The notes: generated from the sequence alone by a model not told the origin. A stretch of DNA of 64,000 bases from Candidatus Avigastranaerophilus sp. (GCA_045599645.1 JAZRWI010000112.1:4566-68565), one strand, 5' to 3'. Positions 36,678 through 61,345 are shown, numbered from the stretch's first letter. Made by a program: numbers and translations.

Positions 36678-36752
36678 TTCTTTATGACCTCATTTTCATT
36701 ATTCACAATTTTATATAATACTCTAACTAAAAATCTCTTCAAAATAAAATTA

Positions 36753-37670
36753 TTATTTGCTACCAATATATAAAAATACAAGAGCTAGCAATACCAAAAT
36801 CAAATCCAGCGCCTTAGACCTAAGATTCTTTTCATGGAATATCAAAACTCCGCAAAGGAAGCTTACAACAACGCTGCTGCGTCGAATCATGGACATAATA
36901 CTCAACAATGCATCCGGAAATGTTAACGCGTAAAAATATGAAAAATCAGATAAGGTTATAAAAACACTGATTAACGGAATGCTCCATTTCCAAACAAAGG
37001 GTGTAGAGCTTTTGCGTTTTGGCCACCACAATAACGCAACCACAGGAATCATCATAAAAAACTGATAAATATTGAACCAGCATAAAACAGACATCTTATT
37101 TATTCCTAAGCCGCCAGCACTGGGTGGAATAATAAGATATTTGTCATAAACAGCAGAACAAGCACCAAAAATATTAGACAATATGATACAGATTATCCAT
37201 TTATTGTGCTTAAAATCTATTCCTTCCTTTTTGCCAGAGCAAGATAGTAAATAGAAAGCAACTATAGCTGTTACTACCCCAATAATCTGCCAAACATTCA
37301 ATCTTTCAGAGAACAAGGTTAAAGCCCCCATAATAACCATTACTGGTCTGGTAGCATTAATTGGCCCAACGATAGTTATTGGCAGATACTTCAAGCCAAT
37401 GTATCCAAAAATCCAACTGGAAAGAACGATGCAGGATTTTACCAGAATAAATTTCTGCTGATCCCAGCAATATGGGGCTGTGTAAACAATTGAGTTTTCA
37501 GTGAATACACCGTTTGCCGAAAAAGCAACAAATGGCAAAAGAATCAAAGATGAAAAAAGCGTATTCAGCAACAACACCGGGAAAACTGCATTATCCTTCA
37601 ATGACTGCTTCTTAGAAGCATCATAAAAGCCGGCAGTAATACAAGATAGTGTTATCAAAATCAACCACAT
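36753..37670 (-). CDS. EamA/DMT-superfamily transporter (10 TM)
   Basis: Two EamA-like halves ending in GALTLFSERLN and GVLIFHEKNL. Confidence 0.65.
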   Translation of the reverse strand: MWLILITLSCITAGFYDASKKQSLKDNAVFPVLLLNTLFSSLILLPFVAFSANGVFTENSIVYTAPYCWDQQKFILVKSCIVLSSWIFGYIGLKYLPITIVGPINATRPVMVIMGALTLFSERLNVWQIIGVVTAIVAFYLLSCSGKKEGIDFKHNKWIICIILSNIFGACSAVYDKYLIIPPSAGGLGINKMSVLCWFNIYQFFMMIPVVALLWWPKRKSSTPFVWKWSIPLISVFITLSDFSYFYALTFPDALLSIMSMIRRSSVVVSFLCGVLIFHEKNLRSKALDLILVLLALVFLYIGSK

Positions 37671-38910: not shown

Positions 38911-38987
38911 TATGACCTTATTTTCTATGGTTTTATCTATGTGAGCTAGATCTGTTCCTGAAAGAGAAGACAGAGCCACCTCAATAA
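38911..38987 (-). pseudogene. Fragment (~77 bp, ~85% identical) of the XRE-DUF4065 antitoxin gene found intact at 56172-56933
   Basis: Direct alignment of 38911-38987 with 56305-56384; the fragment contains an in-frame stop and cannot encode a protein. Confidence 0.6.
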
Positions 38988-39151
38988 AAGACAATAAGTT
39001 GGATTCACAGCAGATGAAGTAAAAGCATTGAGTCAGCAATCATGATTGAAAATAATAGCTCAATAAATACTGCTTATTTGTCTTGAATAAATGTTAAAAC
39101 AATATTAGAATACGTAAAAGCAGCAATAATGGGTCTTTCTAGGAGGAAAAA

Positions 39152-40402: not shown

Positions 40403-41665
40403 TTAAATAAATTCGACAGGGACGGCAAATACCTCTGGAGATATAGCAATAGGCTTTGAGCAGTTGCAGATGATTATTCCGGTTTCTATCTGCATATTAT
40501 TGATTCTATTAGTGATATAGAAATTTTTGGCGTCTTCCGAATTTGGGGTAGCTGTTTTCTTTATTTCAATGGGATAAAGAGTATTATTCTGATAAATCAT
40601 CAGGTCTATTTCAACCTTATCTTTGTCTCTGTAAAAATAAATAGGTGCTTCAATCCCCTGGTTGGCAAATGATTTGATTATTTCACTCACTACGTAGGTT
40701 TCAAAAAAAGCTCCGCCCATAGCACCGGTTCTCATAACTTCAGGGCTGGTCCATCTTGTGAGATACGCAGCAAAACCTGTATCCATAAAATACAATTTTG
40801 GTGTCTTTACAATTCGCTTTTCAACATTAATGGAAAAAGGTTTAAGTAAATATACTAATCCTGAAGTAATGAGCAGGGATAACCATTTTTTTGCCGTTAC
40901 TTCACTGATTCCAACTTCTTTACCAAGATCGCCATAGTTTACTAATTGCCCGGTTCTTGAAGCAACGACGGTAATAAATTGCAGGAATTGCATTTCATCA
41001 GTTATTTGGGTAATTTTTCTGATGTCGCGTTCTATATAGGTTTTTAAATAATTTCCATAAAAATCGTTTGTATTTATTTTTCCCTTAACAACTTCTGGAT
41101 AACCTCCAGTAAAAATAGCTTTCCAGGTCTTATTAACGGAAGCTTCCTTACCTGATAAAGCTTTGCTTCTCTGAATAATGTATTTCTTTGATGGAAGAAA
41201 TGGCTTGTCAAATTTATCCTTTCTGATTTCTCTAGCAGATAGCGGATATAACTCTAACATACCTATACGGCCGGCAAGACTCTCTGTTGCTTTTTCCATG
41301 AGATTAAACGGCTGACTTCCGGTAAGGTAATACATTCCATTTTTTCTATTGCCATCTATATTCATTTTCAAGTAGCGGAATAATTCCGGAACGTATTGAA
41401 TTTCATCAAAAACATATGGACAAGGGTGCAATTCTAAGAAAGCCTTAGGATCTGATTTGGCAGATACTTCTTCTAATGGATCATCAAAAGTGAGATATTG
41501 AGCAGGCTTAATAGCCATCAAATTCTGCAAAAGAGTTGTCTTTCCTGTTTGTCTTGCTCCAGTAACAAGACAGGCAGGGAACTCCTTAGATAATCGTTTA
41601 ATAGTTGCCGTTGCATGTCTTTCTATAAATTTCACGAAACACCTCATGGGATAATCCAAAGTCAT
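40403..41665 (-). CDS. DUF4143-family AAA+ ATPase (copy 1)
   Basis: Walker A GARQTGKTT; C-terminal LYPIEIKK motif shared with the paralog at 54452-55675. Confidence 0.75.
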   Translation of the reverse strand: MTLDYPMRCFVKFIERHATATIKRLSKEFPACLVTGARQTGKTTLLQNLMAIKPAQYLTFDDPLEEVSAKSDPKAFLELHPCPYVFDEIQYVPELFRYLKMNIDGNRKNGMYYLTGSQPFNLMEKATESLAGRIGMLELYPLSAREIRKDKFDKPFLPSKKYIIQRSKALSGKEASVNKTWKAIFTGGYPEVVKGKINTNDFYGNYLKTYIERDIRKITQITDEMQFLQFITVVASRTGQLVNYGDLGKEVGISEVTAKKWLSLLITSGLVYLLKPFSINVEKRIVKTPKLYFMDTGFAAYLTRWTSPEVMRTGAMGGAFFETYVVSEIIKSFANQGIEAPIYFYRDKDKVEIDLMIYQNNTLYPIEIKKTATPNSEDAKNFYITNRINNMQIETGIIICNCSKPIAISPEVFAVPVEFI

Positions 41666-41708
41666 AGTTAATATTATCCCACAGCCCAGAAATTAGCAAG
41701 ATTTATTT

Positions 41709-41800
41709 CTACTTGCTTCCAATATACAAAAATACCAGAGCAAGCAATACAAGGAGCAGATCCAGAGCCTTAGACTTCAGGTTCTTTTCATGGAAAATCA
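41709..41800 (-). pseudogene. Orphan duplicate of the 3' end of the eamA gene (about 80% identical to 36753-36845)
   Basis: The ORF fragment ends ...IFHEKNLKSKALDLLLVLLALVFLYIGSK, versus eamA ...IFHEKNLRSKALDLILVLLALVFLYIGSK; the nucleotide alignment extends about 10 bp past the stop. Confidence 0.65.
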
Positions 41801-42243
41801 GAGACAGCCTCCATGCGGGCACTCTAAGCAGAATCGACGGCGGTTGCTGTTTTACCTTTTCTAATGATTTTATTAAATCTGATATAAAAAATCTGACATT
41901 TAATCTTAATAAAAGCAATCCAAATCTTCGCTTCATTGGTCATAACCAGAAAAAGCAACCAGACTTATGGTTTCAAAACTTATAGCCAATTTTGAAAAGA
42001 ACTTAAAACTTATAGAAAACATACCTATGCCGCCCAAGACCCTAGATAAGCAATACAGCCTAATGAGCAAACGAATCAATCACCTTAAAAGTATATATTG
42101 ATTCCATCTGTTTTCAGCTGGTTTTCATTCCAAGGAAAAATTCAAAACGCCCTGCCCTATTTGTCGAACTTAAGTATAACAAAAATACAGATTCCGCCAT
42201 TAGGCAGATTCAAGAAAAGCATATAATTGTCTAATTAAAAAAT

Positions 42244-42338
42244 TTGACCTAAGCCGAACGGCTAAATTATAATATATCTATTAAATTTAAGCCGTTCGCC
42301 TAAATATTGGTATATACAATCAAATTTCGCCGAACGAC
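42244..42338 (+). promoter_or_regulatory. hipBA promoter (TTGACC -18- TATAAT) with three CGAACG/CGTTCG-type operator half-site repeats
   Basis: ttgacc at 42244-49 and tataat at 42268-73. Palindrome agccgaacggct (42252-63) lies in the spacer; related sites gccgttcgcc (42291-300) and gccgaacgac (42329-38). Confidence 0.45.
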
Positions 42339-42364
42339 TAATACTCGGTTTCAGGAGAAATCCC

Positions 42365-42583
42365 ATGAAAATAACTGATGCAACCTCCTTAGGAAACGCC
42401 ATTCGCGCACGAAGAAAAAAACTTAAATATACTCAGGGCTATATTTCCGAAATTACAGGTCTTAGCATAAGTTTTTTATCTGATCTTGAAAACGGGAAAC
42501 AAACTGCTGAAATCGGCAAAACAATCGAAGTAATCAATCTTCTCGGGTTGGATATTTTAGTAGAGGCAAGGGAAGATGAGTAA
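42365..42583 (+). CDS. hipB: HipB-like XRE-family HTH antitoxin
   Basis: 72-aa HTH_XRE protein; 8-nt overlap with the downstream HipA-like gene. Confidence 0.75.
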   Translation: MKITDATSLGNAIRARRKKLKYTQGYISEITGLSISFLSDLENGKQTAEIGKTIEVINLLGLDILVEAREDE

Positions 42584-43868
42584 TATTTCTTTAACGGTTC
42601 AGATTGAAATAAACGGAATGATGACAAAAGTTGGTTCAATTACAGGTACCAGCTATAAAGATGCTGTGTTTGCATACGATGAATCATATACAACTGATAA
42701 AAATCATCGTCCAATCTCCATCAGCCTTCCTTTCTCAAAGCAGGCTTTTACTTCAGATGCAACCAGAAATTATTTTGAGGGACTCTTACCTGAAGGTTTT
42801 ACCCGTAAAAGCATAGCAGAATCCATACATACAGACTTAGATGACTATATTTCAATTTTAAAAGAACTTGGTCGCGAATGTCTTGGTGCTATTCAAATTA
42901 TGGACGAATCCAATCAGACAACAGAAGAGAACTACAAAAAACTTACCCCAAAAGAAGTAAAGGCTTTGGCCGAAGAAGGTGCAAGTCTTGCGGTAAATCT
43001 TGTAATAGAGTCTCATCTCTCGCTTACAGGTGCTTCTGGGAAAACGGGTCTATACTATGATGAAAAAAAGAGGAAATGGTATCAACCGATAGGTTCTGCT
43101 CCTAGTAACTATATTGTAAAACAAAGTCATGTCCGGTTAAGCAACATTGTTGTAAATGAACAACTCTGTCTTCTAACAGCCAAGAAACTTGGAATAGAAA
43201 TACCAGACAGCTTCATCATCCAGACAAGGAAAAATAAAAGTAAAGACGCAGACATCTTATTTGCGACAAAAAGATTTGATAGATATGTTGACCGTGATTC
43301 AAGAGAATTGAACACTTTACCGATTCCTTACAGGCTCCATCAGGAGGATTTTGCACAGGCTCTTGGAATAAATTCTTCTAATAAATACGAAAAAGACGGT
43401 AAGCATTATTTAAAACAGATGTTCAATATCATCCGTTCATATTCCGCAAATCCTATCGAAGACCAATTTAAACTATGGCGAATTACAGTATTCAATTTTC
43501 TTATTGGCAATACTGACAATCACATAAAAAACTATTCACTTCTATATAGTAAAGATTTGCGAACTTTACGGCTTGCACCATGTTATGATGTAGTAAGTAC
43601 CAAAGTTTATAAAAATGATATAAATGAAATGTCTCTTAGTATTAATGAAAAATTAAACATGGATGAAGTTACACGAGCGGACTTTGAACTTGAGGCAAAA
43701 TCAGTTGGCCTTGGTGCTAAGTTTGCCATGAACATTTTTGATGAAGTCCAGAATGGACTGCTGGAAGCATTACAGGCAAGCGTAAGAGAACTGGAAGAAA
43801 AAGGTTTTACTCAAGCAGGTAATATCGCTAATAAAATTGAAAAAAATTTTAAACACAGAAAATCATAA
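42576..43868 (+). CDS. hipA: HipA-family Ser/Thr kinase toxin
   Basis: HipA N- and C-terminal domains; catalytic-loop motif IGNTDNHIKNYSLLY (D-H-KN). Confidence 0.8.
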   Translation: MSNISLTVQIEINGMMTKVGSITGTSYKDAVFAYDESYTTDKNHRPISISLPFSKQAFTSDATRNYFEGLLPEGFTRKSIAESIHTDLDDYISILKELGRECLGAIQIMDESNQTTEENYKKLTPKEVKALAEEGASLAVNLVIESHLSLTGASGKTGLYYDEKKRKWYQPIGSAPSNYIVKQSHVRLSNIVVNEQLCLLTAKKLGIEIPDSFIIQTRKNKSKDADILFATKRFDRYVDRDSRELNTLPIPYRLHQEDFAQALGINSSNKYEKDGKHYLKQMFNIIRSYSANPIEDQFKLWRITVFNFLIGNTDNHIKNYSLLYSKDLRTLRLAPCYDVVSTKVYKNDINEMSLSINEKLNMDEVTRADFELEAKSVGLGAKFAMNIFDEVQNGLLEALQASVRELEEKGFTQAGNIANKIEKNFKHRKS

Positions 43869-43882
43869 AAATGCTACCAGTA

Positions 43883-43934
43883 TAAAATAATGCAATTCTT
43901 TATTCGGCATATTCCCTCACAGAAGTATCTGAAT
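43883..43934. repeat. 52-bp sequence identical to the antitoxin/toxin gene junction at 56154-56205
   Basis: Exact match, base for base. It encodes the last codons of the DUF4065 antitoxin and the first 9 codons (MPNKELHYF) of the toxin, followed by a frame-terminating tail. Confidence 0.8.
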
Positions 43935-43941
43935 GAATGAT

Positions 43942-44331
43942 TTAACTAACATCAGAAACAAGAACATTTGTATCGATTACAGCATAATATGCCATACTAT
44001 TTTGTTTTTTTCTCACCATTTCTATTTCTGCGTTGATTTCTTCCAAGCCCATGTCACTTATGCCATTTTTCGCAGCTAACATGCTTGCAGCTTTCATGGC
44101 CGCCAAACCCTTGTTTCCTTTTTGCTGTAACTGTAATGGAAAAGGAACCCCATTGTCATGAACCAATCGCACAACGCATATACGCATATATGTTGGCAAA
44201 TCCATTCCTAACTGTTCACAAATGCTCATCGCCTTCGCTTTTAAAGAATCATCCATTCGAAATTGAACAAAAGAACTAGGCATATTCACCTCCAAACTAT
44301 ACCTAATATAATTATAACATTTTACAATCAA
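43942..44331 (-). pseudogene. Decayed type II TA locus: RelB/DinJ-like antitoxin fused in frame to the first 16 codons of a PIN-domain (VapC-like) toxin that is then truncated
   Basis: N-terminal FVQFRMDDSLKAKAMSICEQLGMDLPTYMRICVVRLV resembles RelB/DinJ; the C-terminus MAYYAVIDTNVLVSDVS* is a canonical PIN start (IDTNVL) that terminates abruptly beside the 52-bp repeat. Confidence 0.55.
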
Positions 44332-44579
44332 AAGTAATCATTTGATTACATATTTTTTTTAACTCCGTAACTTACAGCAAAATATCTTTAAATTATGCTT
44401 AATTTCAAATTCAGCCACTTTTAAAGAAACGACAATATTACTTTTGTTAAATGTGTCATTAGCATTTCCTGCAGCACATATTGTCTGCTTTCTTGTATCA
44501 TTCAATACTCACCACGGCTTGGTTAATTTATCGTTTATGTCTTGTCGTGAAAGCACTTTTGAAGAAAGTTTCTAAAAAG

Positions 44580-47324
44580 CTATTGCCAACCTTTCAACAA
44601 TTTTGCCAATTTTTCTTGTTTATCAAGAACAACTGCGCATTTATCCCAGTCTTCGGTAACAGGCGGCACAGATTCATATTTTAGAGCAAAAGCATTCTGT
44701 TTTGGTAAAGAATTAATTTTATTGCGCGCCTCAGCTTCGTTGTTTAAAGCAATATCAATCCAAACATCTTCTAGAGTATCTGGTATTTGTCCAAACATAT
44801 TGAATATATCGTTCAAACGACTTGATAACGCTTGATGAACTTTATCTTCTACAGAATCTTTATATCTCATGTTAAATATTCTTATAGTATTACTTAATTG
44901 CCCTATTCTCTGAATACGACCTTTTCTCTGTTCCAATCTTGTAGGATTCCAAGGTAAGTCCAAATTTATCAAAGTTGATAAAGTTTGTAGGTTTAAACCT
45001 TCACTTGCAGCATCAGTACCAACAAGTATTTTTATTTCATGATTTCTTACAGAGTCTTTTAAATCATCTTTTAACTTCTTTTCAAAAATGCCATTTACGA
45101 ACACCCCAGATTTATCGCCACCAGCATATAAACCAACTCTACAATCAGCAATATCTTTTGATAATGTTTCTGCAATATAACGAGCACTATCATAATATTG
45201 CGAGAAAATAATACAACCCCTATCTTTCCATGGCGTATTATCTTCTGTTATACCATTCAACAAAATATCCAATACTTTTGCATACTTTGGATCTTTATCT
45301 TTATTTAAGCTTAATACTTTTACTAAGTCCTCAAGACATTCAATTTCATCCGGAGTCAAGTTCTTGATTTCGCTTTGTTCTTCGTCTGTTTCATCATCTT
45401 CAAATTCAGTATCAAATTCATCCAAAAGAATTTGCCTACCTTCTTCTGTCCAGGCTAGCATTTTTTTGGCTGTGTTTTCTCCAGCAAGAATAGTACTACC
45501 AATACGTCTAAGCATAAGAGTAGACATAAATCCACCAGCCTTAACTCTTTTGGACAATAACTTACAAAACTCTTCTGCTTTTTCGTAACCTTGTCGGCAA
45601 TAACCTTCCAAAGCAATGGCATCGTCATTGTTTTCACCGAATAATTTAACTTCAATTTTTTGTAAATAAGGTAAACCAGTCTTAGGATTAATGCTATTTT
45701 CCAAAAATTCTCTAGTTCGTCTTACAATATGTCTTATATAGGGATTATATTTTTTTACAAATTCATCTGTTATATACAAATCCCTTAGTGAATTCCGGAT
45801 AGACATTCTGCAATCATTGAATAATGCAGCAGGTAAGACAAAATCATTATCACTTAAATCCAATTTATCACGCAAAGTTTTTATCTTAAATGATGTCTGG
45901 GTTTTATCTGGAAATGGATTTCTCATAATGTCCCACATCGTGACTTCACTTTCGGGAACAGGCTCTTTGCCACACACAATATCCAACATATGTTGGGGTT
46001 TTGTATTCCATTCGCTGTAAATATCTCCAAATACTTTCTCATTAGGCAATGCCAATGCGTGTAACAAGTCATAAGCCTCAATGGTATTTACTTGCACAGG
46101 CGTAGCTGTGGCAAGAAGCATACTCTTAGTTTTCATGCTTATTTCATTTAAAAAACGTAATAAGAAATTGCAATCCGCTTTATGATTATCAGGATCGCTG
46201 CTAGGATTTCTCCTTCTGGCCCTATGGCTTTCATCACATATAACACATTCATATTCTTGTTGTAGAAGTAAAGCAGATGCTTCTGTTCTACGTGCAACCA
46301 GACCTTGCGATACAATGCCTATTCTTCTAGGACATCTATGAATTGACTTTATTGATTCTGCCGGATAAAAATAACCTGATTCGTCTTGCCAACCTCTACC
46401 AGTCCAAACAGCACTTGGCATATCTAACAAATTTTTCATTTCATCCTGCCATTGAAAAACCAGAGTTTTTGGTACAATTATTAAAATTGGTTTTTCTCCA
46501 TATACGGCCATTAACTTTGCCGACATAGCAAGTTGAATAGTTTTACCAAGACCTACCTGGTCCGCCAACAAAAATCTAGCTCCACCTTCTTTTTGATGTT
46601 CTTTGAATGCAAGCTCTACAAAATATTTCTGATGATCCCAAAGTCCGAATTCTTTTCGAAAAACAGGTTCTTCAACAGCAATGGCAGGTATCTCAACCTC
46701 TTTTTCATTACGCCACTTTTCAAGGGGTATTATTACTCTTCTGGAAATTCTATCAATATCATCAATAATAGAATCGCTTAATGGTTTAGCATATTTATTA
46801 TTCCAAAAGAAATCAAATTCGTCTTGAACCCAGTTTATAGCCTCAATTGAGTCATCTTCCCATATCATTTCATAATTCAGTTTAAAAGCACTTTTTGTTT
46901 CGTTTATACTACCAATAAAACAGGTTTTAGAATCATCCTTGTATGTTATTATCCCAGCTTTTCCGTGCATTAAGCCATATATTTCGTCAGGTATTACTCT
47001 TATTTGCATTTTACCGCTTTTCAACAAACGATATAAACGAGCAAGTCTTTGAGAACTTTGTGGTGTCGAATATTCTTCTTCTGGTTTAAATCCACACCAT
47101 TCCTGTTTTATTCGCTGAGCCACTTCAATATCTTCTTTTGCCAAGCCGGAATTACATATTATGCGAATATTACCTTCTATAGACTCAATGCTTTCTCCTG
47201 CTACTTCCAATATTGAAGAACAGAAGTAACCAGCAATTCTATCGTATTTTTTGGCACCAACTAATTTTTTATTTAGAAAAGCCTCATCTAGCTTTTGTAA
47301 TCTTGATGAATAACGTTTAATCAC
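44580..47324 (-). CDS. PLD-family nuclease domain fused to SNF2/DEAD-like helicase (defence-operon gene 4)
   Basis: N-terminal HxK(x4)D-GSxN motif LMHGKAGIITYKDDSKTCFIGSINETKSAF; helicase motif I LADQVGLGKTIQ, motif II DESHRARR, helicase-C region LVGTDAASEGLNLQ and QRKGRIQRIGQ. Confidence 0.8.
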   Translation of the reverse strand: MIKRYSSRLQKLDEAFLNKKLVGAKKYDRIAGYFCSSILEVAGESIESIEGNIRIICNSGLAKEDIEVAQRIKQEWCGFKPEEEYSTPQSSQRLARLYRLLKSGKMQIRVIPDEIYGLMHGKAGIITYKDDSKTCFIGSINETKSAFKLNYEMIWEDDSIEAINWVQDEFDFFWNNKYAKPLSDSIIDDIDRISRRVIIPLEKWRNEKEVEIPAIAVEEPVFRKEFGLWDHQKYFVELAFKEHQKEGGARFLLADQVGLGKTIQLAMSAKLMAVYGEKPILIIVPKTLVFQWQDEMKNLLDMPSAVWTGRGWQDESGYFYPAESIKSIHRCPRRIGIVSQGLVARRTEASALLLQQEYECVICDESHRARRRNPSSDPDNHKADCNFLLRFLNEISMKTKSMLLATATPVQVNTIEAYDLLHALALPNEKVFGDIYSEWNTKPQHMLDIVCGKEPVPESEVTMWDIMRNPFPDKTQTSFKIKTLRDKLDLSDNDFVLPAALFNDCRMSIRNSLRDLYITDEFVKKYNPYIRHIVRRTREFLENSINPKTGLPYLQKIEVKLFGENNDDAIALEGYCRQGYEKAEEFCKLLSKRVKAGGFMSTLMLRRIGSTILAGENTAKKMLAWTEEGRQILLDEFDTEFEDDETDEEQSEIKNLTPDEIECLEDLVKVLSLNKDKDPKYAKVLDILLNGITEDNTPWKDRGCIIFSQYYDSARYIAETLSKDIADCRVGLYAGGDKSGVFVNGIFEKKLKDDLKDSVRNHEIKILVGTDAASEGLNLQTLSTLINLDLPWNPTRLEQRKGRIQRIGQLSNTIRIFNMRYKDSVEDKVHQALSSRLNDIFNMFGQIPDTLEDVWIDIALNNEAEARNKINSLPKQNAFALKYESVPPVTEDWDKCAVVLDKQEKLAKLLKGWQ

Positions 47325-47343
47325 AACTAACCTCCAATAATTC

Positions 47344-50238
47344 TTATATACTATCGTGAGTTACCATAGACAGCAGCATTTCTGCCATTTCACCGCATTC
47401 TGCCCAATGTGACTTCATATTATCAATGTCTTTTACGTCACAAAGGAAAGCCAAAATCTGCTTTATCATTTCTCGCTTTTCCCAATAGCTTAAACCTATT
47501 TCGCTTTTTATATAATTCAATGCTGTAGCAGGTTTATTATCGTCTTTTATACCAGCATAAATGCCTGCAAAAACAATTCTTGTTATTGATTTTTCAAAAT
47601 CAGGTATTTCATTTATTGTTCTGGCACCTAATTCATAAGGAGTCTTCAACCTAGCAGTATTTGCCTTTTCGCTAGCCATTAACTGAGAATAGCCACCGAT
47701 AGAAAAACCACGTGCAAATTCCTGATAAGTACTTATTTGGTAATCGCCATGCTTTTCTGATTCCAAACCTTTAATATAGAATTTTTCAGAATTTGTTAGT
47801 TCCTTCCAAAGTAAACTTTCAAAATTTATAGGAATAACACAGTCATAAGCAATTTTCTTTGCATTTTCAATAATGGAAACAATCTTACTTCCAGCTGGAT
47901 TCTTTATAGCCTGATTTAATTCAAAATCCAAATCAAGGTCTTCTATTGAAGAATAAGAAGTCAAAACTTTTAAAGAAGCCGCATAAGCAGCCAATACATA
48001 ATCTGGGTCAGAAAAATTGGGTTCTTCTTTATCATCTAATTTCTGCATGCTATCAATTTGATTCTTTACTTCCGACCTTATATCAGCATTTATTTCATCC
48101 AAGAAAGCACAATCACTACCTGTCTGTTTTCTTAATACAAGCAATACAGTGCCTTTTACATAATTGCCTTTTTTAAGACCCGAAGCATCTGTTTCCGTTG
48201 CTATATTCCATGCTGCAGTAACCTTTAAACCTGCTTTCCACATTATAACCGCTAATTGTGCCCAAACGGCAGGGTCACTATGAGTAAACATAACAACTTG
48301 CATACCGTCATCAGGCATGTGTTTTGCAAGATTAGAATAAATTTCAATCATTGCATGAGAAAAATTATCATCACCTTTTATTGCCAAAATTCTCTTGCTA
48401 TCAGTATACCATTCCGGGAAAGCCTTTTTTAGTAATTCTTTGTCCCAAGCTAGAAAATATTCAGACAATTCATGATAATTAACTGCATCTGCATAAGGTG
48501 GATCCGTAACCCAAAAATCGCAATTATTATCTATATTTCTTGCATCAATTAGTTCTACCTCGCTAAATTTATTAGTATTATAACAATTTACTGACCAATT
48601 CCAAACTTCCCTTAGCATATAAAAACTACGCTCACCCCAATTAACCATGGGATTTAAAGCTTGATTGTAAAAAGTATTTGTCGAAATATCAACTGATGCA
48701 GCCCAGCTGCAGAGCTTTGAAGCAAAATCAGAACATTTATTTAAACCAAGTGCCCCAACTACAATAAACTTGGGGTCATCTGAATTTAAAATATATTTAT
48801 TTAATAAGCTTAAATAAAGCAAATGTCTTGCCCCAAACAATTGATGCCAATACTTCCAACCTCGTTCTCTGATAATCTGATCTGTATTATAACCACTTTC
48901 AATGCAAGAACTTGGAATGAGACCATCAAATTGCCAATCCTTCAAATTATCAGCAACAATACTCCTTATTTTTTCCTCATTCCTCAAATCAAATTCATCT
49001 GGTTTTTTATAATATCTACTTTTATCGTTTCGTAAATATCTTATCGCGTATAACCGTTCAGTGAATACATCATCATTCGAATAACAATATTCTTTTTGAT
49101 CTAGTTTTCTAATACCACTAATTATCTGACCATTTTCGTCCCACTTATCACCACGAATTTTATTAATGGGTGTCGTTTTTCCACAATTTGGACAAAATAC
49201 AATACCTTTGAAAAAGGTATGATTGTTCTCTGCTTTTTTAAAAGCCATTTCACTCACATTGGACAAAATTTCAATATCAAAACAATTTTTATTCTCATTC
49301 TTTTTCAATTCAAGAACAACTCTACCTGCTCTTTTACCTACCACAAAAGAAGATAATAACGGTATCTTTACTCCACATTCGGGGCAAATTGTTTCATTAC
49401 AAAATAAATAGCCTAAAGCTTGATGACCTTCATTACTTAAATCTATTCCCAACTCTTTTATATCTTTTTCAACTTTTGAATAAATATCATTTTGAAAATA
49501 ATGTATTTTATCTAATTCTTTATTAGAAACACCACATACATTTATGCTAGCCCAAGTAAGTAAACCTGCTATAGGATTTAAATCACTAGCCAAAGATTGA
49601 CACCCAATTCTCGCAGCTTCAAAAGGTATTGAGCCACCACCACAAAAACAATCACCAACTTTTACAGTATGACCAAATCTTTTTATAGATAATTCTTCAA
49701 CTAATTCGGGCAATGAATGTGCGCTAGTATGCAAATGTTGGTTAACTTCGTTCCAGGTTTGTTCACTTAAATTGTTGAGATGTTCAGGCCTCATGCACAT
49801 TGCTAACTTATCATCTATAGATAATGTTTCAAAGCAACTCTTTTCTATGTCTGTTCTTGGTGAATCTTTTTCTAATTTAACCTTACCTTTTTCATCAACC
49901 TTAAAAAACTTAAGATATTGATTAGACAACTTTTTATTGCTACGAACTATTTCATAAAGCTCTTTGAGAGTAAAATTCTTTTCCTTACGTAGCCAAAGTC
50001 CTTCTTTATCCATTGAAAGCAACTTTTGAAAGATTTCCATATCTTTCTTTGGATTATCAGAAGAAGGCATTAAGCAACCTAATATTGCGGCTCTTACCAG
50101 AATAAGAGGCTTTCTTCCCCACCAACGTCCCATTCCTGTTAATGTTTGACTTTGAACAGCTTTTCTTTCTTTATAGCTTTCTTTGCTTATTTTACTCACT
50201 GGAAATTGTTTTTCTATGAATGATATCTGATTATTCAT
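47344..50238 (-). CDS. DUF1156-type N6-adenine DNA methyltransferase (PglX-like; defence-operon gene 3)
   Basis: 964 aa; SAM motif I FCGGGSIPFEAARIG; catalytic motif IV DPPY (WVTDPPYADAVNY); N-terminus typical of DUF1156 proteins (QTLTGMGRWWGRKP). Confidence 0.75.
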   Translation of the reverse strand: MNNQISFIEKQFPVSKISKESYKERKAVQSQTLTGMGRWWGRKPLILVRAAILGCLMPSSDNPKKDMEIFQKLLSMDKEGLWLRKEKNFTLKELYEIVRSNKKLSNQYLKFFKVDEKGKVKLEKDSPRTDIEKSCFETLSIDDKLAMCMRPEHLNNLSEQTWNEVNQHLHTSAHSLPELVEELSIKRFGHTVKVGDCFCGGGSIPFEAARIGCQSLASDLNPIAGLLTWASINVCGVSNKELDKIHYFQNDIYSKVEKDIKELGIDLSNEGHQALGYLFCNETICPECGVKIPLLSSFVVGKRAGRVVLELKKNENKNCFDIEILSNVSEMAFKKAENNHTFFKGIVFCPNCGKTTPINKIRGDKWDENGQIISGIRKLDQKEYCYSNDDVFTERLYAIRYLRNDKSRYYKKPDEFDLRNEEKIRSIVADNLKDWQFDGLIPSSCIESGYNTDQIIRERGWKYWHQLFGARHLLYLSLLNKYILNSDDPKFIVVGALGLNKCSDFASKLCSWAASVDISTNTFYNQALNPMVNWGERSFYMLREVWNWSVNCYNTNKFSEVELIDARNIDNNCDFWVTDPPYADAVNYHELSEYFLAWDKELLKKAFPEWYTDSKRILAIKGDDNFSHAMIEIYSNLAKHMPDDGMQVVMFTHSDPAVWAQLAVIMWKAGLKVTAAWNIATETDASGLKKGNYVKGTVLLVLRKQTGSDCAFLDEINADIRSEVKNQIDSMQKLDDKEEPNFSDPDYVLAAYAASLKVLTSYSSIEDLDLDFELNQAIKNPAGSKIVSIIENAKKIAYDCVIPINFESLLWKELTNSEKFYIKGLESEKHGDYQISTYQEFARGFSIGGYSQLMASEKANTARLKTPYELGARTINEIPDFEKSITRIVFAGIYAGIKDDNKPATALNYIKSEIGLSYWEKREMIKQILAFLCDVKDIDNMKSHWAECGEMAEMLLSMVTHDSI

Positions 50239-50782
50239 TTTTTTCTTCTCCTAAATAATCCATAAGTAGTTGATTGAACTCGTTGACAGGGTTATCACAA
50301 AGAATAAATTTCAAAGCCATCCGCCAACCTCTTTTGTTGTTGTAAATGTCACCAGTACTGGCATTTGTCATGGTGTAAAGCCACCATCGTTCTTCGGGAG
50401 TTAAACCTAGCCAGTTTCTTATAGCTACTGGTATGCCTGCAACCTCATTATTTTCAATACCCCACAAAAGAATCATCAATTCTTTTCCCATTAATTTCTC
50501 TACAGGGGTTCCACCAACAACAAATTTACCAACAAGCTTCTTTTCTGCTTTCAGCCTGCTATTAAACTCAGCAGTAACATTCTTTACAACCTTTACCCAT
50601 CTTGAATAAGTTATTTTAAGCTTAAGAACATCTTTTTGTTCACTTATTTGTTGTTCACCTTCATGCTCCCAATGAAACCTTTCATAAATTTCAATATCTT
50701 TGCGCCCACCAGGATTAACAACATAAAAATGGTTTTCTGTTTCAGAAGGGTTAAAACCAAATCCAATGAATTCCTTTTTCAT
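50231..50782 (-). CDS. DUF3780-like small protein (defence-operon gene 2)
   Basis: 183 aa; overlaps both neighbours by 4-8 nt (translational coupling). Family call rests on size, position and recollection of the DUF499-DUF3780-DUF1156 gene neighbourhood. Confidence 0.5.
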   Translation of the reverse strand: MKKEFIGFGFNPSETENHFYVVNPGGRKDIEIYERFHWEHEGEQQISEQKDVLKLKITYSRWVKVVKNVTAEFNSRLKAEKKLVGKFVVGGTPVEKLMGKELMILLWGIENNEVAGIPVAIRNWLGLTPEERWWLYTMTNASTGDIYNNKRGWRMALKFILCDNPVNEFNQLLMDYLGEEKNE

Positions 50783-53700
50783 TGGATAATTTCTCCGTTC
50801 TTTTTCAGATTATCAAGATCAACCTTACTTAACTCTACCCAGTCATTAAAATTCTGACCTGTTCTGAAAATCAACTCTTTGTATTCAAAAGTTACGGTTG
50901 TATCTTTGCCTTCAAGGCTTGTTTCCCTGATTTTATCTATTAATTGCTGCAATATAATTGGTTTATATGCTACATTAGCGGCACATTCAACATAGGCAGC
51001 TTCATCCTGCTTATCATAAACATATATAGTAGTATTCTTAATTTGTAAACCGTCTATCTTACTGAGCAATTCTAATTCTTTATAGCTTGTTTCCGTATCC
51101 GATAACTGTTTCTTGCTTTTCATTTTGTAAACGAGTGTTTTGTTTACATCAACAGAAAAAACGGCTTCAGCGTCTTCGTTAGTTATCTCAATATCTCTAG
51201 CATCAATTACTTGGCCTTTAAACAAAGTAACAGTTCTTACATATTTACAGTCTTTGGGTAGAACTATTTCCCCATTATACAAGCCGCCATTTTCTTTGGG
51301 TTCACTCCCGTCGGTTGTATATCTAATTTCATAGTTATCATTAGCTTGTAATGTCAATACTCTGCCATTAGGCGTGGTTCTTTGTTCATATTTTGTTGGC
51401 GCCTTACATACAAACTCAACAACACGTCCGGTTTTTCTTTCTTTGTTCGGGTCGATGCACACAAAGTTTGCACAAGGTTCCTTTGTGACAAAAACACTGT
51501 CATTCAATTCTGTAGATGCTTCGGTTGGGTCAGCACCAACATCATAGTAAACACGGCCGCCAACACCTTTTACACGCAAAGTGAATTCCTGAGTCTTTTC
51601 ATCATAATATGTCTGCGTAACAGAAACACTGGTTGGTTCTTTTTCAAAAGGCCCCTTTACCAAATATCCACTGATTTCTCTCCATTTGTCCTTTTTAATA
51701 CAATCAGCACGCAAACTATCTAACTGATCAGGATGATACCATTGCCAAGAGGTTTCTGTTGCAGCTCTATCACAAATCTGTGAATAGGTCATTTCTTTTG
51801 TAGTAAAAAGACGTGCTTCACATTTCTTACGCATGGTTTCCAGGAAATTGTCATCCTTAGAAAATTCTTCGTATTTCATGTTGCTTTTTAAGAGTTTAAT
51901 AATCTGGTCTTCGCCATCAAATTTATTATCTTTAAACTCTAATTTAAAATCAGCTGAGGTAATCCCATTCTTGGTGGGATAATATAAGCTGACAAATGTT
52001 TCACGTATTGTTGAAAATAAGGCCTGTGTCGCTTTGTCTACCTGAGCTTCAGCTTCTTTATATTGCTGGTCCAGTGCTGAAATTCCTTCGCTTTTCATTG
52101 TTTCAATAATAGTTTTTATTGCCTTTAGCTTTTTACTATTAATGAAAAGCTTTTCCATTACACTTCGTTCCCCCGACAAGAACATTACTCTGTTTTTCTG
52201 TGACTTTCCGTTATAGAATTCCATCAATTCAGGATGTAATTTATTGCCAGGATATGGCTCGTAGATTACCAAAGATATTTTTTTATTATCTAAATTTATT
52301 TCATCAATTGCAGGCAAAACATATAACTGTTCATAGCATGTTTTTAATTTTGGACTGAAATTTTCACTCAAAATACCCTTTAATTCTTTTCTTGCATTAT
52401 CATTAGTATAAGAATCAATCAAGGTATTCATTTCTGCCACCATGTTTTTGGTGTTCTGAAAATACAAACGACCTCTATTATCTGTCTTGATATACCAACA
52501 AAGTGACTTTAATTCTTCTAAGCAACTCTTTACACTATCAATATCTACATCTGGAGCACTCATAAAGCCCAAAACTTCTGGTTCGGTTAAACCTAACAAT
52601 GCGTGATGTACTGTAGAAAGCGAAGAGACAAGAAGTAGTTTTGCTACTTGTTGCGCATTTTCACCTTTTTCTGGTCTATCGTAGTCAATCAATTCTGCAA
52701 CAGATTTCTTTGATTGAGAAATGTCATGGCTTATTGCTTCTTCCAATTCAGGTTTTATCTGCCTAAATATGGACATCATGTTTGGATTGTTAAGGTCGAC
52801 ATCGAAAACATTTATTAAATAAGATGTGTCTGCTTTTTTGCTTTCAAAAAACTGACGGACAATCTGGCGCATCAGTTTAATAAGACCACGTGTCTGTTGA
52901 AAATTCTGATTTTCTTTAAATCTTGCATATAACTCTTTTATAGAAGGGTGAAACGGGTATGAATCAATAATACCTTTATAAACTGCTTCACCTGTATATG
53001 ACGTAAAGCCTAGATTTTTAGATTTGGATACAGCTTCTTTAAAAGCAATTGCGATTTCATTTTTTTGCCCTGAATAATCAACAGGTATCGGATCGTCTTT
53101 AAATAAACGCTTACGTAAAATAGAATAAACTTCATCACTGTTTAGGGCAACAGGTGCTATTTCTAAGGCTACACGATTGGCTTCTCCTTCCAATTCTTTA
53201 AAGCTGGATTGAAGGAGTTCACTACCAGATTCATAAGCAGCCCTTAAATCAGAAAATACTAAACAAACGTTAGATAACTGCGCTTTGCCTAATGCACTGA
53301 ATAAATTAGCTAGGGCAGTCATTGTAACCTTGCTTAAATCAGAATTACCAATGGTAATTGAACGGGCATTTTCCAAGTAAGGTGGTAATTCGTCAAACAA
53401 AAGCAGAATTTTATCATTCTGTAATAAATTAATCCAAGACTTTTCACCAGGTGCTCTTAGTGGTGAATAATATTCACTAAACAATTCTTTTTTGCCGAGT
53501 TGTTCTGCTATACTACCCCAAATACCATATTCAGCATTTTCCCTTCCCGAGAAAGTTATAACCTTTATTTTTCCAATATCTTTGTATTTGGGCCCAAGTA
53601 TCTTTGTTCTTAATTCAACGTTTTCAGCCAACAAAGCCAATGCCAACATACTATGAGTTTTACCACCACCCATAGCCTGAGTTAATTTTATTACCCCAGT

Positions 53701-53895
53701 ATCTGATTCGCCTAAAAAACGTTTAAACGCAGTATCAAACAACATACCCATACCCTGAGTCTTATAGTTTTCAGAAAAGAATTTTTCAGCGTCAATTCTA
53801 CCTTCGCCATAGTCTGAAAGATTTAAAGTATCTTCTCTTGTTGTATCTTGGAAAACAGATTCACGGGGTTTAAGCATCTGAGCAATGGCTTTCAT
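50779..53895 (-). CDS. DUF499-family AAA+ ATPase (BrxC/PglY-like; defence-operon gene 1)
   Basis: 1038 aa; Walker A LTQAMGGGKTHSMLALALLA; Walker B LLLFDELPPYL; a large alpha-helical C-terminal region typical of BrxC/PglY-like proteins. Confidence 0.7.
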   Translation of the reverse strand: MKAIAQMLKPRESVFQDTTREDTLNLSDYGEGRIDAEKFFSENYKTQGMGMLFDTAFKRFLGESDTGVIKLTQAMGGGKTHSMLALALLAENVELRTKILGPKYKDIGKIKVITFSGRENAEYGIWGSIAEQLGKKELFSEYYSPLRAPGEKSWINLLQNDKILLLFDELPPYLENARSITIGNSDLSKVTMTALANLFSALGKAQLSNVCLVFSDLRAAYESGSELLQSSFKELEGEANRVALEIAPVALNSDEVYSILRKRLFKDDPIPVDYSGQKNEIAIAFKEAVSKSKNLGFTSYTGEAVYKGIIDSYPFHPSIKELYARFKENQNFQQTRGLIKLMRQIVRQFFESKKADTSYLINVFDVDLNNPNMMSIFRQIKPELEEAISHDISQSKKSVAELIDYDRPEKGENAQQVAKLLLVSSLSTVHHALLGLTEPEVLGFMSAPDVDIDSVKSCLEELKSLCWYIKTDNRGRLYFQNTKNMVAEMNTLIDSYTNDNARKELKGILSENFSPKLKTCYEQLYVLPAIDEINLDNKKISLVIYEPYPGNKLHPELMEFYNGKSQKNRVMFLSGERSVMEKLFINSKKLKAIKTIIETMKSEGISALDQQYKEAEAQVDKATQALFSTIRETFVSLYYPTKNGITSADFKLEFKDNKFDGEDQIIKLLKSNMKYEEFSKDDNFLETMRKKCEARLFTTKEMTYSQICDRAATETSWQWYHPDQLDSLRADCIKKDKWREISGYLVKGPFEKEPTSVSVTQTYYDEKTQEFTLRVKGVGGRVYYDVGADPTEASTELNDSVFVTKEPCANFVCIDPNKERKTGRVVEFVCKAPTKYEQRTTPNGRVLTLQANDNYEIRYTTDGSEPKENGGLYNGEIVLPKDCKYVRTVTLFKGQVIDARDIEITNEDAEAVFSVDVNKTLVYKMKSKKQLSDTETSYKELELLSKIDGLQIKNTTIYVYDKQDEAAYVECAANVAYKPIILQQLIDKIRETSLEGKDTTVTFEYKELIFRTGQNFNDWVELSKVDLDNLKKNGEIIQ

Positions 53896-53935
53896 AAACT
53901 CAATCCTTTATTTTTAGTTGTATTAGCCAAGCCCA

Positions 53936-53985
53936 TTAACTCAAAAGAGTTAATGAGCTTTATCATCTTAACTCTTTTGAGTTAA
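53936..53985. promoter_or_regulatory. Pair of mutually reverse-complementary 18-bp palindromes (TTAACTCAAAAGAGTTAA / TTAACTCTTTTGAGTTAA) in the divergent promoter between the defence operon and the XRE regulator
   Basis: 53936-53953 and 53968-53985; each is itself near-palindromic, and they are separated by 14 bp. Confidence 0.55.
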
Positions 53986-54037
53986 TTTTTGCAACAAAAA
54001 ATTGCCTATGATGTACCGTACATTGGAGAAAAACAAT

Positions 54038-54280
54038 ATGGACATAGGCGAAGCCGTAAAACTAAGAATACAAGAGCTTTTAGATGAGCGTAAAATTACA
54101 TTGAATCATCTAAGTTATTTATGCGGCATTACTCAATCCACGCTCAACAACATAATAAGCGGAAGAAATAAGGGTACAACCATTACTACAATAAAAAAGA
54201 TATGCGATGGTCTTGATATAACAATTATTCAGTTTTTTGAATCCAAGCTTTTTGAAAAATTAGACCAGGAAATCAAATAA
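54038..54280 (+). CDS. XRE-family HTH transcriptional regulator
   Basis: HTH_XRE signature ITLNHLSYLCGITQSTLNNIISGRNKGTTITTIKKICDGL. ATG at 54038 has a GGAG RBS; the ORF-track start at 54002 is a TTG. Confidence 0.7.
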   Translation: MDIGEAVKLRIQELLDERKITLNHLSYLCGITQSTLNNIISGRNKGTTITTIKKICDGLDITIIQFFESKLFEKLDQEIK

Positions 54281-54451
54281 CCAATAAGTTTAAATAGAAA
54301 AACACAAACCGAAACCTTGGGAGCCAAAAAGCCAAAGGCTTAATCGTTACTCCGCAACAATGGCAGAAAAGAATGTTTAGATTTTTGATTTGATTTTCGT
54401 TAAATTTTCGGCTATTTTAATATTGAATATTAAAATAGCCGGAGAATAGAT

Positions 54452-55675
54452 ATGTATATTTATAGGCATGTTGAGCCAACAATCAAAAAACTGGCAAAAA
54501 TGTTTGGCGCTGTTTTGGTCGCAGGGCCAAGACAAGTTGGGAAAACAACTACACTTAAAGTAGTGACCAAAAACATAAACTACATATCTCTTGATGATCC
54601 AATATTATTGGCCAGTGCCTTAGACACAACAATTACATTTTTTAAGGACAATCCCCCACCAGTCTTTGTAGACGAAGTTCAAAAGGCTGCCAACCTCTTT
54701 CCTCAGATTAAACTCTATATCGATGAAATCAAAAAAAAGGGATTGTTCTTTTTATGCGGTTCTCAGCAATTCCAAATGATGAAAAACGTAAGCGAATCTC
54801 TTTCCGGCAGATTAGGCCTAGTAACATTACTCGGTTTGTCAATGCGCGAAAAATACAACTGCAGATTTACCGATGCCTTTATTCCAACAGACGATTATTT
54901 TGCAAAACGACGTAAGCAATTCAAAGAAATCACTTATTCTGATGTATGGGAAAATATACACCGCGGTAGCATGCCTGAACTATACTCTAACCCGGATTTT
55001 GACTGGCAAATGTTTTATGGGGCATACGTCAGAACCTATATAGAACGTGACGTTAGAGAATTAGCCAATATTGGTGATGAAGTGAAATTCACCAGATTCA
55101 TGACAGTCTTAGCCTCAAGAACAGGCCAACTGCTAAACCTTAATTCAGTAGCCAATGATGTTGGAATAAGCCAGCCGACTGCTGACAGATGGCTATCTAT
55201 TCTTATTGCTTCCAACATAGTTTATTTGTTAAAACCCTATTACAACAATCTAACCAAGAGACTGATAAAAGCACCAAAACTTTATTTTCTAGATACAGGT
55301 CTTGCTGCATATCTTACGAAGTGGAACACCTCTGAAGTCTTAAGAAATGGAGCGATGGCCGGAGAATTCTTTGAAAGCTTTGTCATATCAGAAATTATTA
55401 AAAGCTATTACAATCAGGGAATCTTAGAACCACCTATTTATTTTTATCGAGACAAAGAAATGAAAGAAATAGACTTGCTCATAGAGCAGGGGGACACACT
55501 ATACCCCATAGAAATTAAGAAGCACGCTGACCCCACAGTTAAAGATATAGACAACTTCAAGGTTCTTGACAATATGAAAGGAATAAAGCGTGGTTCCGGC
55601 GGCGTAATATGCACCTATGACAAGCTTATAACCCTCAAGGGCAACGACCGAATAATCCCGATAACCCACATATAA
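54452..55675 (+). CDS. DUF4143-family AAA+ ATPase (copy 2)
   Basis: Walker A GPRQVGKTTT; paralog of 40403-41665 across the full length (shared FFE.....SEIIKS and LYPIEIKK motifs). Confidence 0.75.
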   Translation: MYIYRHVEPTIKKLAKMFGAVLVAGPRQVGKTTTLKVVTKNINYISLDDPILLASALDTTITFFKDNPPPVFVDEVQKAANLFPQIKLYIDEIKKKGLFFLCGSQQFQMMKNVSESLSGRLGLVTLLGLSMREKYNCRFTDAFIPTDDYFAKRRKQFKEITYSDVWENIHRGSMPELYSNPDFDWQMFYGAYVRTYIERDVRELANIGDEVKFTRFMTVLASRTGQLLNLNSVANDVGISQPTADRWLSILIASNIVYLLKPYYNNLTKRLIKAPKLYFLDTGLAAYLTKWNTSEVLRNGAMAGEFFESFVISEIIKSYYNQGILEPPIYFYRDKEMKEIDLLIEQGDTLYPIEIKKHADPTVKDIDNFKVLDNMKGIKRGSGGVICTYDKLITLKGNDRIIPITHI

Positions 55676-55804
55676 GCCAAGCCGAATCACATTATATCTT
55701 CAATCTGTAAATCAATTTCTGTATATTCCATAAAACCCATTAATCAATTAAGTCTTTAAACAACGTCAGAAGTTTCTAATTTATGCTAATTCCAGCAATT
55801 CTGT

Positions 55805-56182
55805 TCATAATGATTCTAGAAATTGTTTTAAGCGATAACGGTCTTCGTTTTCTTTATCGCCTTTAAAATATATTTCAACGAATGTTATTTTTAGAGCTTC
55901 TGGCTCAAAAACAAAAATAACTCTGATACCTGTTCGGTTACCGAGGTTTTTTAAGGCCATGCAAGCAAATTTTCTAACCTTCAAGGATTCATAATTTTCT
56001 GAACAATAACCTTCTATAGGAACAAAAGCTATAGTTGGAACACCTTTTAAATAATGAGTTTCAAGAGAATATTTTTTCATTATTTCGAAATCTTTTGGAA
56101 GTGTTCTAAATCTTTTTTGAAGCCGCTTGAAATCCTTTTCAAATTCTGGAATTGTAAAATAATGCAATTCTTTATTCGGCAT
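55805..56182 (-). CDS. Type II toxin (125 aa; RelE/ParE/HigB-like fold suspected), translationally overlapped with the upstream antitoxin
   Basis: Small basic ORF that overlaps the antitoxin stop by 11 nt. No definitive family motif is visible, so the toxin role is inferred from context. Confidence 0.5.
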   Translation of the reverse strand: MPNKELHYFTIPEFEKDFKRLQKRFRTLPKDFEIMKKYSLETHYLKGVPTIAFVPIEGYCSENYESLKVRKFACMALKNLGNRTGIRVIFVFEPEALKITFVEIYFKGDKENEDRYRLKQFLESL

Positions 56183-61283: not shown

Positions 61284-61345
61284 ACCTGTTTATTTGCCGT
61301 CCGAATACTCGGACAGCTTTGATAGTGGACTCGGATGAGTAGTAA

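Follow-up and report, generated by a model that had tools for sequence, protein, structure and literature searches.

A 52-nt direct repeat links two toxin-antitoxin (TA) modules in the 64,000-nt stretch of Candidatus Avigastranaerophilus sp. DNA that was analyzed here (hereafter the window). One copy, at 56155–56206, is the working gene junction of an intact module, and the other, at 43883–43934, is a remnant of the same junction lying 18 nt from the stump of a broken toxin gene. Our pairwise comparison confirmed the base-for-base identity of the two copies claimed by the initial annotation of this locus, which had placed the second copy one base off (56154–56205). The 52-mers are separated by 12,272 nt (~12.3 kb), and the chance expectation for a repeat of this length was nil (0 matches in 100 shuffles). 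We interpret the 43.9-kb copy as probably a non-functional duplication/deletion scar in a tandem TA array of a hypervariable defense island, recently homogenized and later abutted by a hipBA module. The features of the window on which this interpretation is built are the following.

42225–43868, plus strand: hipBA module (hipB 42365–42583, hipA 42576–43868; Pfam HipA_C, Couple_hipA and HTH), convergent on the remnant.
43869–43882, minus strand: putative decayed extension of the toxin remnant (codons 10–14), 9/14 identical to the working copy.
43883–43934, minus strand: 52-nt remnant made of the 3′ end of the PanA gene (30 nt), a ribosome-binding site and the start of the toxin gene (9 codons plus 1 nt), identical to 56155–56206.
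43935–43952, minus strand: 18-nt spacer between pin′ and the 52-mer, holding the TAA that ends the fused ORF.
43953–43995, minus strand: pin′, a pseudogene fragment that retains the opening 43 nt of a PIN_3 (VapC-like) toxin gene, or 14 codons plus 1 nt, as delimited by alignment to four intact pin genes.
44005–44011, minus strand: A7 homopolymer (A8 in all relatives), a −1 slip that deletes the relB TAG stop and fuses RelB to the PIN remnant.
44005–44283, minus strand: first 93 codons of a relB/dinJ-family antitoxin gene (Pfam PF04221) without a working partner toxin.
44431–55680, no strand assigned: inserted block of 11.25 kb that parts the toxin gene from relB, only 28 nt being present there in relatives.
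55805–56933, minus strand: intact module composed of an HTH-Panacea (PanA) antitoxin gene (56172–56933) and the gene of a 125-aa toxin (55805–56182), bearing the second 52-mer (56155–56206).

The minus-strand ORF at 43942–44331 most likely starts at the ATG at position 44283. Residues 4–65 of the ORF match RelB (PF04221) with 32.9 bits against a cut-off of 22.4, and TIGR02384 gave 41.6 bits, just under its cut-off of 45.65. The window RelB is 96–97% identical in amino acid sequence to the 95-aa RelB of relatives. Comparison of relB with its counterpart on contig L023 gave pN = 0.018 and pS = 0.146 (pN/pS of ~0.12), and the promoter regions of the two genes are identical at 136 of 147 positions. 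The window product reaches 113 aa by a frameshift, and no intact co-oriented toxin gene lies directly downstream. Its frameshifted tail of 18 residues (QNS, 14 pin′ residues and DVS) replaces a two-residue TK ending, and residues 97–110 (MAYYAVIDTNVLVS) are identical at 13 of 14 positions to the N-termini of PIN_3 toxins encoded straight after homologous RelB genes. The initial description of this ORF as a RelB/DinJ-like antitoxin running into the start of a PIN toxin is therefore correct as to both partners, the PIN part amounting to 14 residues and not 16, with DVS and the stop codon outside the homology.

Alignment of the window to four intact pin genes ends after ...GTTTCTG, at position 43953. 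The stump differs from L027 at one and from L023 at two of its 43 positions, and its descent from a PIN_3 gene is apparent from the 41 of 43 nt that it shares with the start of the L023 pin gene, the product of which has a precomputed PF13470 match. All that remains of the toxin is residues 1–14, the first Asp included; the complete PIN fold of ~130 aa is absent, and no PIN domain can fold from the 14 codons of the window. No other pin fragment was found anywhere in the window. Since 18 nt (43935–43952) lie between the end of the PIN homology and the 52-mer, the view that the module is “truncated exactly at” the repeat was overstated.

The fusion of RelB to the stump has a separate and later cause. 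At the homopolymer the window reads GTGAGAAAAAAACAAAATAGTATGG and contigs L027, L023 and L001 read GTGAGAAAAAAAACAAAATAG; in all relatives the sequence is GTGAGAAAAAAAACAAAATAGTATG, in which an A8 run is followed by the TAG stop, one base and the pin ATG. The in-frame read-through results from this 1-nt contraction (A7 versus A8) and stands apart from the recombination, and the fusion is incidental and secondary to the rearrangement. Given that L027, the closest relative, still has A8, the slip is specific to the window genome, unless the A7 run is a homopolymer sequencing error instead of a real mutation, as it could be. An exact-protein look-up of the window HipA, the PanA-associated toxin and the 113-aa RelB fusion returned no record; a 113-aa NCBI member of the RelB 90% cluster is identical to the window product. 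Judging from its sequence, the window RelB would be an orphan antitoxin with no toxin left to neutralize, which may still serve as a repressor or protect against incoming relB-pin elements.

Related genomes provided the intact ancestor type. A search with RelB led to a 90% cluster, most members of which are 95 aa long and end in ...VRKKTK*; the same search of a genome-contig collection gave one relative only, at 60%. In the relatives, the 95-aa RelB gene is followed after a gap of 1 nt by a 135-aa PIN_3 gene, and such intact pairs occur on more than 10 related contigs, drawn from ENA samples ERZ27247xxx and ERZ1767561 and from Logan runs. In more distant RelB-PIN_3 pairs (~60% identity), the two genes overlap by 4 nt. 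The window is 94.6% identical to the intact relB-pin loci over 479 nt (44430–43953), and this identity stops at the breakpoint, at 43953, which bears out the earlier reading of the locus as a decayed RelB/PIN module. The intact ancestor type, the anatomy of the locus and the frameshift can be read directly from these alignments.

The same contigs reveal that the two modules joined by the repeat are old neighbors. PanA, the toxin gene (in full or in part), relB and pin lie on one strand in L022, L023, L012–L014, L016, L017, L019 and L020. The order in L022, L023 and others is CBAH, PanA, toxin, (34-aa ORF), relB and pin, and beyond pin come XRE82 on the opposite strand, two AAA_14/DUF4143 genes and EamA. 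A blastn block map relates L023 to the window as follows.

L023 3943–5292 = window 57028–55681: PanA, toxin and downstream.
L023 5293–5320 (28 nt) in place of window 55680–44431 (11.25 kb): inserted block.
L023 5321–5799 = window 44430–43953: relB upstream region, relB and pin′.

The PanA-toxin pair of the window shares 89% nucleotide identity with that of the relatives. Because the relatives' pair sits directly upstream of relB-pin, a simple exchange between distant cassettes is not supported; the adjacency of the two cassettes is ancestral. Of the recombination between two TA cassettes that the initial annotation had put forward, what stands is that a fragment of the other module follows pin′. 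The state of the two toxin genes varies among the assemblies as listed below.

PanA-associated toxin with an internal deletion (residues 22–105): L012, L013, L014, L016, L017, L019, L020 and L026.
PanA-associated toxin intact: the window, L011, L022 and L023.
PIN intact (135 aa): nearly all relatives.
PIN cut to 14 codons: the window and L027.
PIN absent: L001, in which relB abuts a glycosyltransferase gene.

The toxin-deleted assemblies have intact PanA, RelB and PIN, the reverse of the window, and the antitoxin genes are intact in all compared assemblies. On L001 (positions 1–714), relB, with 97% amino acid identity to that of the window, enters a family-2 glycosyltransferase gene at its own stop-codon position; the L001 state is a third, independent route to the loss of pin. 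Blocks x (41798–41896) and y (42111–42221) occur in the window in an order different from that of L015, L018 and L023. Module order differs between nearly every pair of contigs, often like a circular permutation, as would be expected if duplications were repeatedly followed by deletions. No single simple path leads from any sampled relative to the window.

The module at 56 kb, initially read as an intact XRE-DUF4065/toxin pair, was recognized as such in our analysis. Its antitoxin matches SocA_Panacea (PF13274; 64.5 bits against a cut-off of 25.7) and HTH_3 (59.9 bits), and its gene overlaps the toxin gene by 11 nt, as expected of a Panacea module. Comparison with Pfam and NCBIfam gave no match for the toxin. 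We found 150 homologues; the profile of these toxin homologues matched HigB-2 from PDB weakly (E = 0.003) over the C-terminal 50 residues, and Pfam RelE (PF06296) gave weak matches in 4 of 26 homologues.

In this working copy, the 52-mer covers the last 30 nt of the PanA gene and the first 28 nt of the toxin gene. The 43.9-kb copy preserves 10 codons from the end of PanA and 9–14 from the start of the toxin gene, and encodes no Panacea module. Several searches extend the fragment beyond the exact repeat: repeat family D9 spans 66 nt at 91% by taking in a weaker 14 nt on the toxin side, tblastn aligned MPNKELHYFILVAF with MPNKELHYFTIPEF over the extension, and an nhmmer profile of the working junction aligned window positions 43934–43870 (E = 1e-14), reaching profile position 125. 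In shuffle tests, neither the 18-nt spacer nor the 20 nt on the other side of the window remnant was significantly similar to the sequences that flank the remnant in relatives, to the rest of pin or to the rest of the toxin gene; being short and AT-rich, these flanks hold too little to prove a common origin. The 52-mer had 0 matches in viral contigs, as did its 31-mer core in JGI metagenomes.

Two further candidates were discarded. A third, heavily decayed copy of the junction near hipB (~42160–42232) had weak tblastn matches and no nhmmer support, and this region is a fragment of a PDDEXK_9 gene. An integron/att-site reading was set aside on the grounds that the window has no recombinase, that the module boundaries have no common motif and that the repeat lies inside the coding sequence of a TA module. 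Among the scanned ORFs of the window, none has an integrase, transposase or recombinase domain.

On its far side the remnant meets the hipBA module, identified by HipA_C (1e-49), Couple_hipA (1e-21) and HTH_3 matches and by an 8-nt overlap between hipB and hipA. Homology to other hipBA copies ends at 43862, 6 nt before the hipA stop codon, and HipA ends in ...HRKS* in the window and in ...RRKLSHS* in L010. The boundaries of hipBA recur in eight other contexts with unrelated flanks (L009, L010, L013 and the five JGI contigs L028–L032), and the 3′ flanks in the JGI contexts are all different. hipBA is a discrete, separately mobile module. HipA homologues include proteins from Treponema MAGs. Upstream of hipB (42250–42350) lie three copies of a CCGAACGGCTAA-like motif, some of them inverted, which resemble putative HipB operator sites. 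As the junction fragment is truncated on both sides and abuts a separately mobile module on the far one, more than one event is needed to account for it.

An independent assembly carries the same arrangement. Contig JAZRZF010000286.1 of GCA_045601105.1 (L027) matches window positions 44359–43753 with 98.85% identity over 608 nt, a match that spans relB, pin′, the 18-nt spacer, the 52-mer, 20 more nt and the 3′ end of hipA. Its 52-mer is identical to that of the window at 49 of 52 positions and its homopolymer is A8; the three private substitutions indicate that the fragment is not strongly constrained. The presence of the junction in L027 implies that it predates the split of the two strains. 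Upstream of relB, L027 has a T5orf172/ResIII helicase gene, where the window has a different system. The context of the working junction is confirmed by L011, L022 and L023. Junction remnants in the window and in other contigs compare as follows.

Window, 43934–43870: 52/52 to the window 52-mer, profile span 61–125.
L027, 4878–4942: 49/52, profile span 61–125.
L022–L025, ~490 nt after pin and beyond XRE82: 40/52, profile span 61–113.
L012, second unit, at the same position as in L022–L025: 50/52, profile span 54–160.

A second unit of L012, made up of PanA′ (37 nt), tox′, relB and pin2, starts with the fragment and is 97% identical to the first unit over 1.16 kb. The left boundary of the remnants lies at profile position 61 in the window, L027 and L022–L025 and at position 54, within 7 nt, in L012, and the right boundaries fall within ~12 nt of one another; such coincidence points to a common origin of the remnants. 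Their presumed orthology leans mainly on these boundaries, as the flanks have no significant similarity. A PanA/toxin junction fragment downstream of pin is older than the window strain. Synonymous divergence between the window and L023 lineages is 0.36–0.41 for PanA and the toxin gene and 0.15 for relB, so several changes would be expected in a neutral remnant that is old and has not been refreshed. The remnant of the window has 0/52 changes relative to its own working copy, and that of the relatives has 12/52. This perfect identity would fit a short tract of gene conversion or recombination from the working junction, or a recent derivation from a working copy; conversion over a tract of 52–66 nt is something that we infer rather than observe.

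These observations are consistent with the following history, the order of events being our inference. In the ancestral state, PanA and a possibly RelE/HigB2-like toxin gene would have been followed directly by the genes of RelB and a PIN_3 toxin, in tandem on one strand, and an old duplication in this array would have left a second, 5′-truncated PanA′/toxin unit downstream of pin. In the lineage of the window and L027, a deletion would first have taken pin from codon 15 on, leaving the 43-nt stump 18 nt from the PanA′/toxin junction. Convergent hipBA would next have replaced the second unit beyond approximately toxin codon 10–14. The surviving 52 nt would then have been homogenized with the working junction, through homologous recombination or gene conversion between the two copies, if they were not derived from it only recently. 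The BREX-related block would later have been inserted between the working toxin gene and relB, pushing the 52-mers 12.3 kb apart, and finally the A8-to-A7 slip, in this strain only, would have put relB in frame with the stump and so fused the two. RecA-dependent recombination between the two 52-mers could delete or duplicate the 12.3-kb segment.

The initial annotation implied a shorter path, in which one recent event of illegitimate recombination or templated repair copied 52 nt into the pin break and no older remnant existed. The 52/52 identity with a working copy 12.3 kb away agrees with this model, as do flanks without significant homology to the relatives' remnant and the unexplained “filler” that borders the 52-mer (18 nt and 20 nt), of a kind frequent at illegitimate junctions. 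We nevertheless consider it unlikely, given that a single exchange cannot yield a fragment truncated on both sides and that the junction predates the split from L027, which has gained three substitutions there since. Moreover, its left boundary is the same to the nucleotide as that of the L022–L025 copy and within 7 nt of that of L012, and its right boundary agrees to ~12 nt, a coincidence that is improbable if the copies arose independently.

A second alternative is that the 52-mer and its short flanks travelled with hipBA, for instance on a circular or tandem intermediate, and that the insertion of hipBA destroyed pin. Between part of the 18-nt spacer (ATTTAACTAACATCA) and the flank 3′ of hipA in L010 (ATTTACTAACAGCA) there is a weak match of 13/15 with one gap, so that the fragment could be an insertion within that flank; the score was reached in 44 of 3000 shuffles, however, and the match is marginal and post hoc. 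The decayed copy of L022–L025 adjoins the HipB-like XRE82 gene, although the relatedness of XRE82 to HipB was judged by eye only, and modules look circularly permuted between genomes (hipBA/AAA410 and AAA2/PanA-toxin). No such fragment was found in the eight other hipBA contexts (L009, L010, L013 and L028–L032), which makes carriage by hipBA quite improbable.

We attach a very low probability to the remnant being a selected element, whether an antisense sequence in the hipA 3′ UTR directed against the ribosome-binding site and start codon of the toxin gene or a dedicated recombination site that excises the defense block. From 15 nt after the hipA stop codon, the hipA-sense strand is perfectly complementary over 52 nt to the translation-initiation region of the toxin gene, and a terminator-like site is absent between hipA and the remnant. 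In addition, the central 22 nt are well conserved in decayed copies (21/22), and direct repeats bracket the defense block. This reading conflicts with the 3/52 substitutions of L027 in a 608-nt match that diverges by ~1%, with the L022–L025 copy, in which 12/52 positions are changed and both the context and the orientation relative to neighboring genes differ, and with the lack of an integrase or recombinase in the window. Slightly less probable still is the specific proposal that the 52-mer has been kept identical for a function, the 3′ tail of the hipBA mRNA being a perfect antisense to the PanA-associated toxin gene at its ribosome-binding site and start codon or, separately, the repeats allowing reversible loss or amplification of 12.3 kb. 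If the antisense reading were true, expression of the toxin of one TA module would depend on transcription of another. Finally, short repeats can give chimeric joins in metagenome assemblies, but hardly any weight can be given to an artefactual joining of unrelated contigs through the 52-nt repeat, because the independent L027 assembly has the same two flanks across the pin′-52-mer-hipA junction with its own substitutions inside, and the working context is seen in L011, L022 and L023.

The inserted block makes up most of the distance between the 52-mers and contains the following genes.

44580–53895, minus strand: genes of a PLD(HKD)-SNF2 helicase (914 aa), a DUF1156 methyltransferase (964 aa), a DUF3780 protein (183 aa) and a DUF499 ATPase (1038 aa).
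54002–54280: XRE regulator.
54452–55675, plus strand: AAA_14/DUF4143 ATPase (PADLOC candidate PDC-S01).

The four-gene system matches PADLOC models PDLC02189-93, and its DUF499 ATPase has Fn3-like inserts. The same system adjoins hipBA in a different order in L009, a relative with 90% identity in HipA. A near-perfect palindrome with 16-nt arms (CGGCTATTTTAATATT G AATATTAAAATAGCCG; 54406–54441) lies directly upstream of the AAA_14/DUF4143 start codon and is 92% conserved in L009. A second AAA_14/DUF4143 paralogue is located at 40403–41665 on the minus strand, the homology blocks of both paralogues ending a few nt outside the ORFs, and in L010 and L013 their placement is circularly permuted with respect to hipBA and to the PanA-toxin pair.

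Gene fragments are found elsewhere in the island. The spacer between the CBAH hydrolase and HMGL-like genes (38911–39030) holds two of them, a 74–84-nt piece of the PanA interior (84% identity to 56317–56390, residues 182–205) and 38 nt of a PF09820/PDDEXK_9 gene, which L015 has intact and of which another piece is found at 42111–42221. The EamA transporter gene is represented by two copies of its 3′ end (36749–36844 and 41694–41803); the solitary fragment at 41.7 kb is 91% identical to the EamA gene of relatives, compared with 81% for the full-length gene of the window. L023 has a 51-nt copy of the EamA 3′ end upstream of its AAA_14/DUF4143 gene, like an old insertion-site duplication. Two tandem pullulanase-like genes at 58548–63967 share ~70–75% DNA identity over 2.7 kb (repeat families D1–D6), and a single ORF of 2956 aa occupies 14633–23503 on the minus strand.

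The locus provides a small example of TA modules eroding and reshuffling inside a defense island, for which ~20 related assemblies supply both intact and broken versions. Toxin loss is reciprocal: the PanA-associated toxin is deleted in at least eight assemblies in which PIN is intact, and the opposite holds in the window lineage. Recombination appears to have recurred at a short gene-junction fragment, and the region upstream of relB is a swappable slot in which two near-identical strains hold different defense systems. For annotation, the ORF at 43942–44331 is best described as an orphan, frameshifted relB followed by a pin pseudogene, and the set of contigs as an illustration at the population level. 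The 43.9-kb copy is a scar and not a device, the outcome of ordinary rearrangement, and involves no new kind of element or mechanism.

Comparison with known systems places each part of the locus. The make-up of “Type-2 BREX-related” (BR) systems, a DUF499 ATPase, a DUF1156 methyltransferase, DUF3780 and an HKD-helicase (PMC12839542), is exactly that of the four genes at 44580–53895; this system is the context of the 52-mer finding and not the finding itself. HTH-bearing PanAs are common (Kurata et al. 2022, PMC8832971). The 56-kb module is a candidate pair of the PanA/PanT type (PMC8832971), with which it shares the N-terminal HTH, the Panacea domain and the overlap with a downstream toxin gene; it differs in that its toxin belongs to no Pfam family and has a weak HigB-2 profile match. 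The 43.9-kb copy is a fragment of 52–66 nt, not a module. With respect to unequal crossing-over or tandem duplication at short direct repeats, and to gene conversion among paralogous fragments, the likeness lies in the second tox′-relB-pin unit of L012, which starts at the junction fragment, and in the identity of the window copies where the relatives' remnant is decayed; the differences are that the repeats are only 52 nt long and that no recombination product between the window copies was observed.

Classical VapBC antitoxins are more often of the AbrB, Phd or MazE types. The pairing of RelB/DinJ with PIN_3 is a RelB-type variant by comparison, of which the window keeps only 14 PIN codons. 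Decay of chromosomal type II TA modules with loss of the toxin, which leaves an orphan antitoxin, is the pattern behind the “anti-addiction” idea. Here too an antitoxin gene and promoter region that are intact and conserved accompany a destroyed toxin gene, and strains have lost different toxins. Two traits set the window apart from ordinary TA decay: the breakpoint is marked by a fragment of the neighboring module, and the antitoxin has gained a frameshifted tail of 18 residues.
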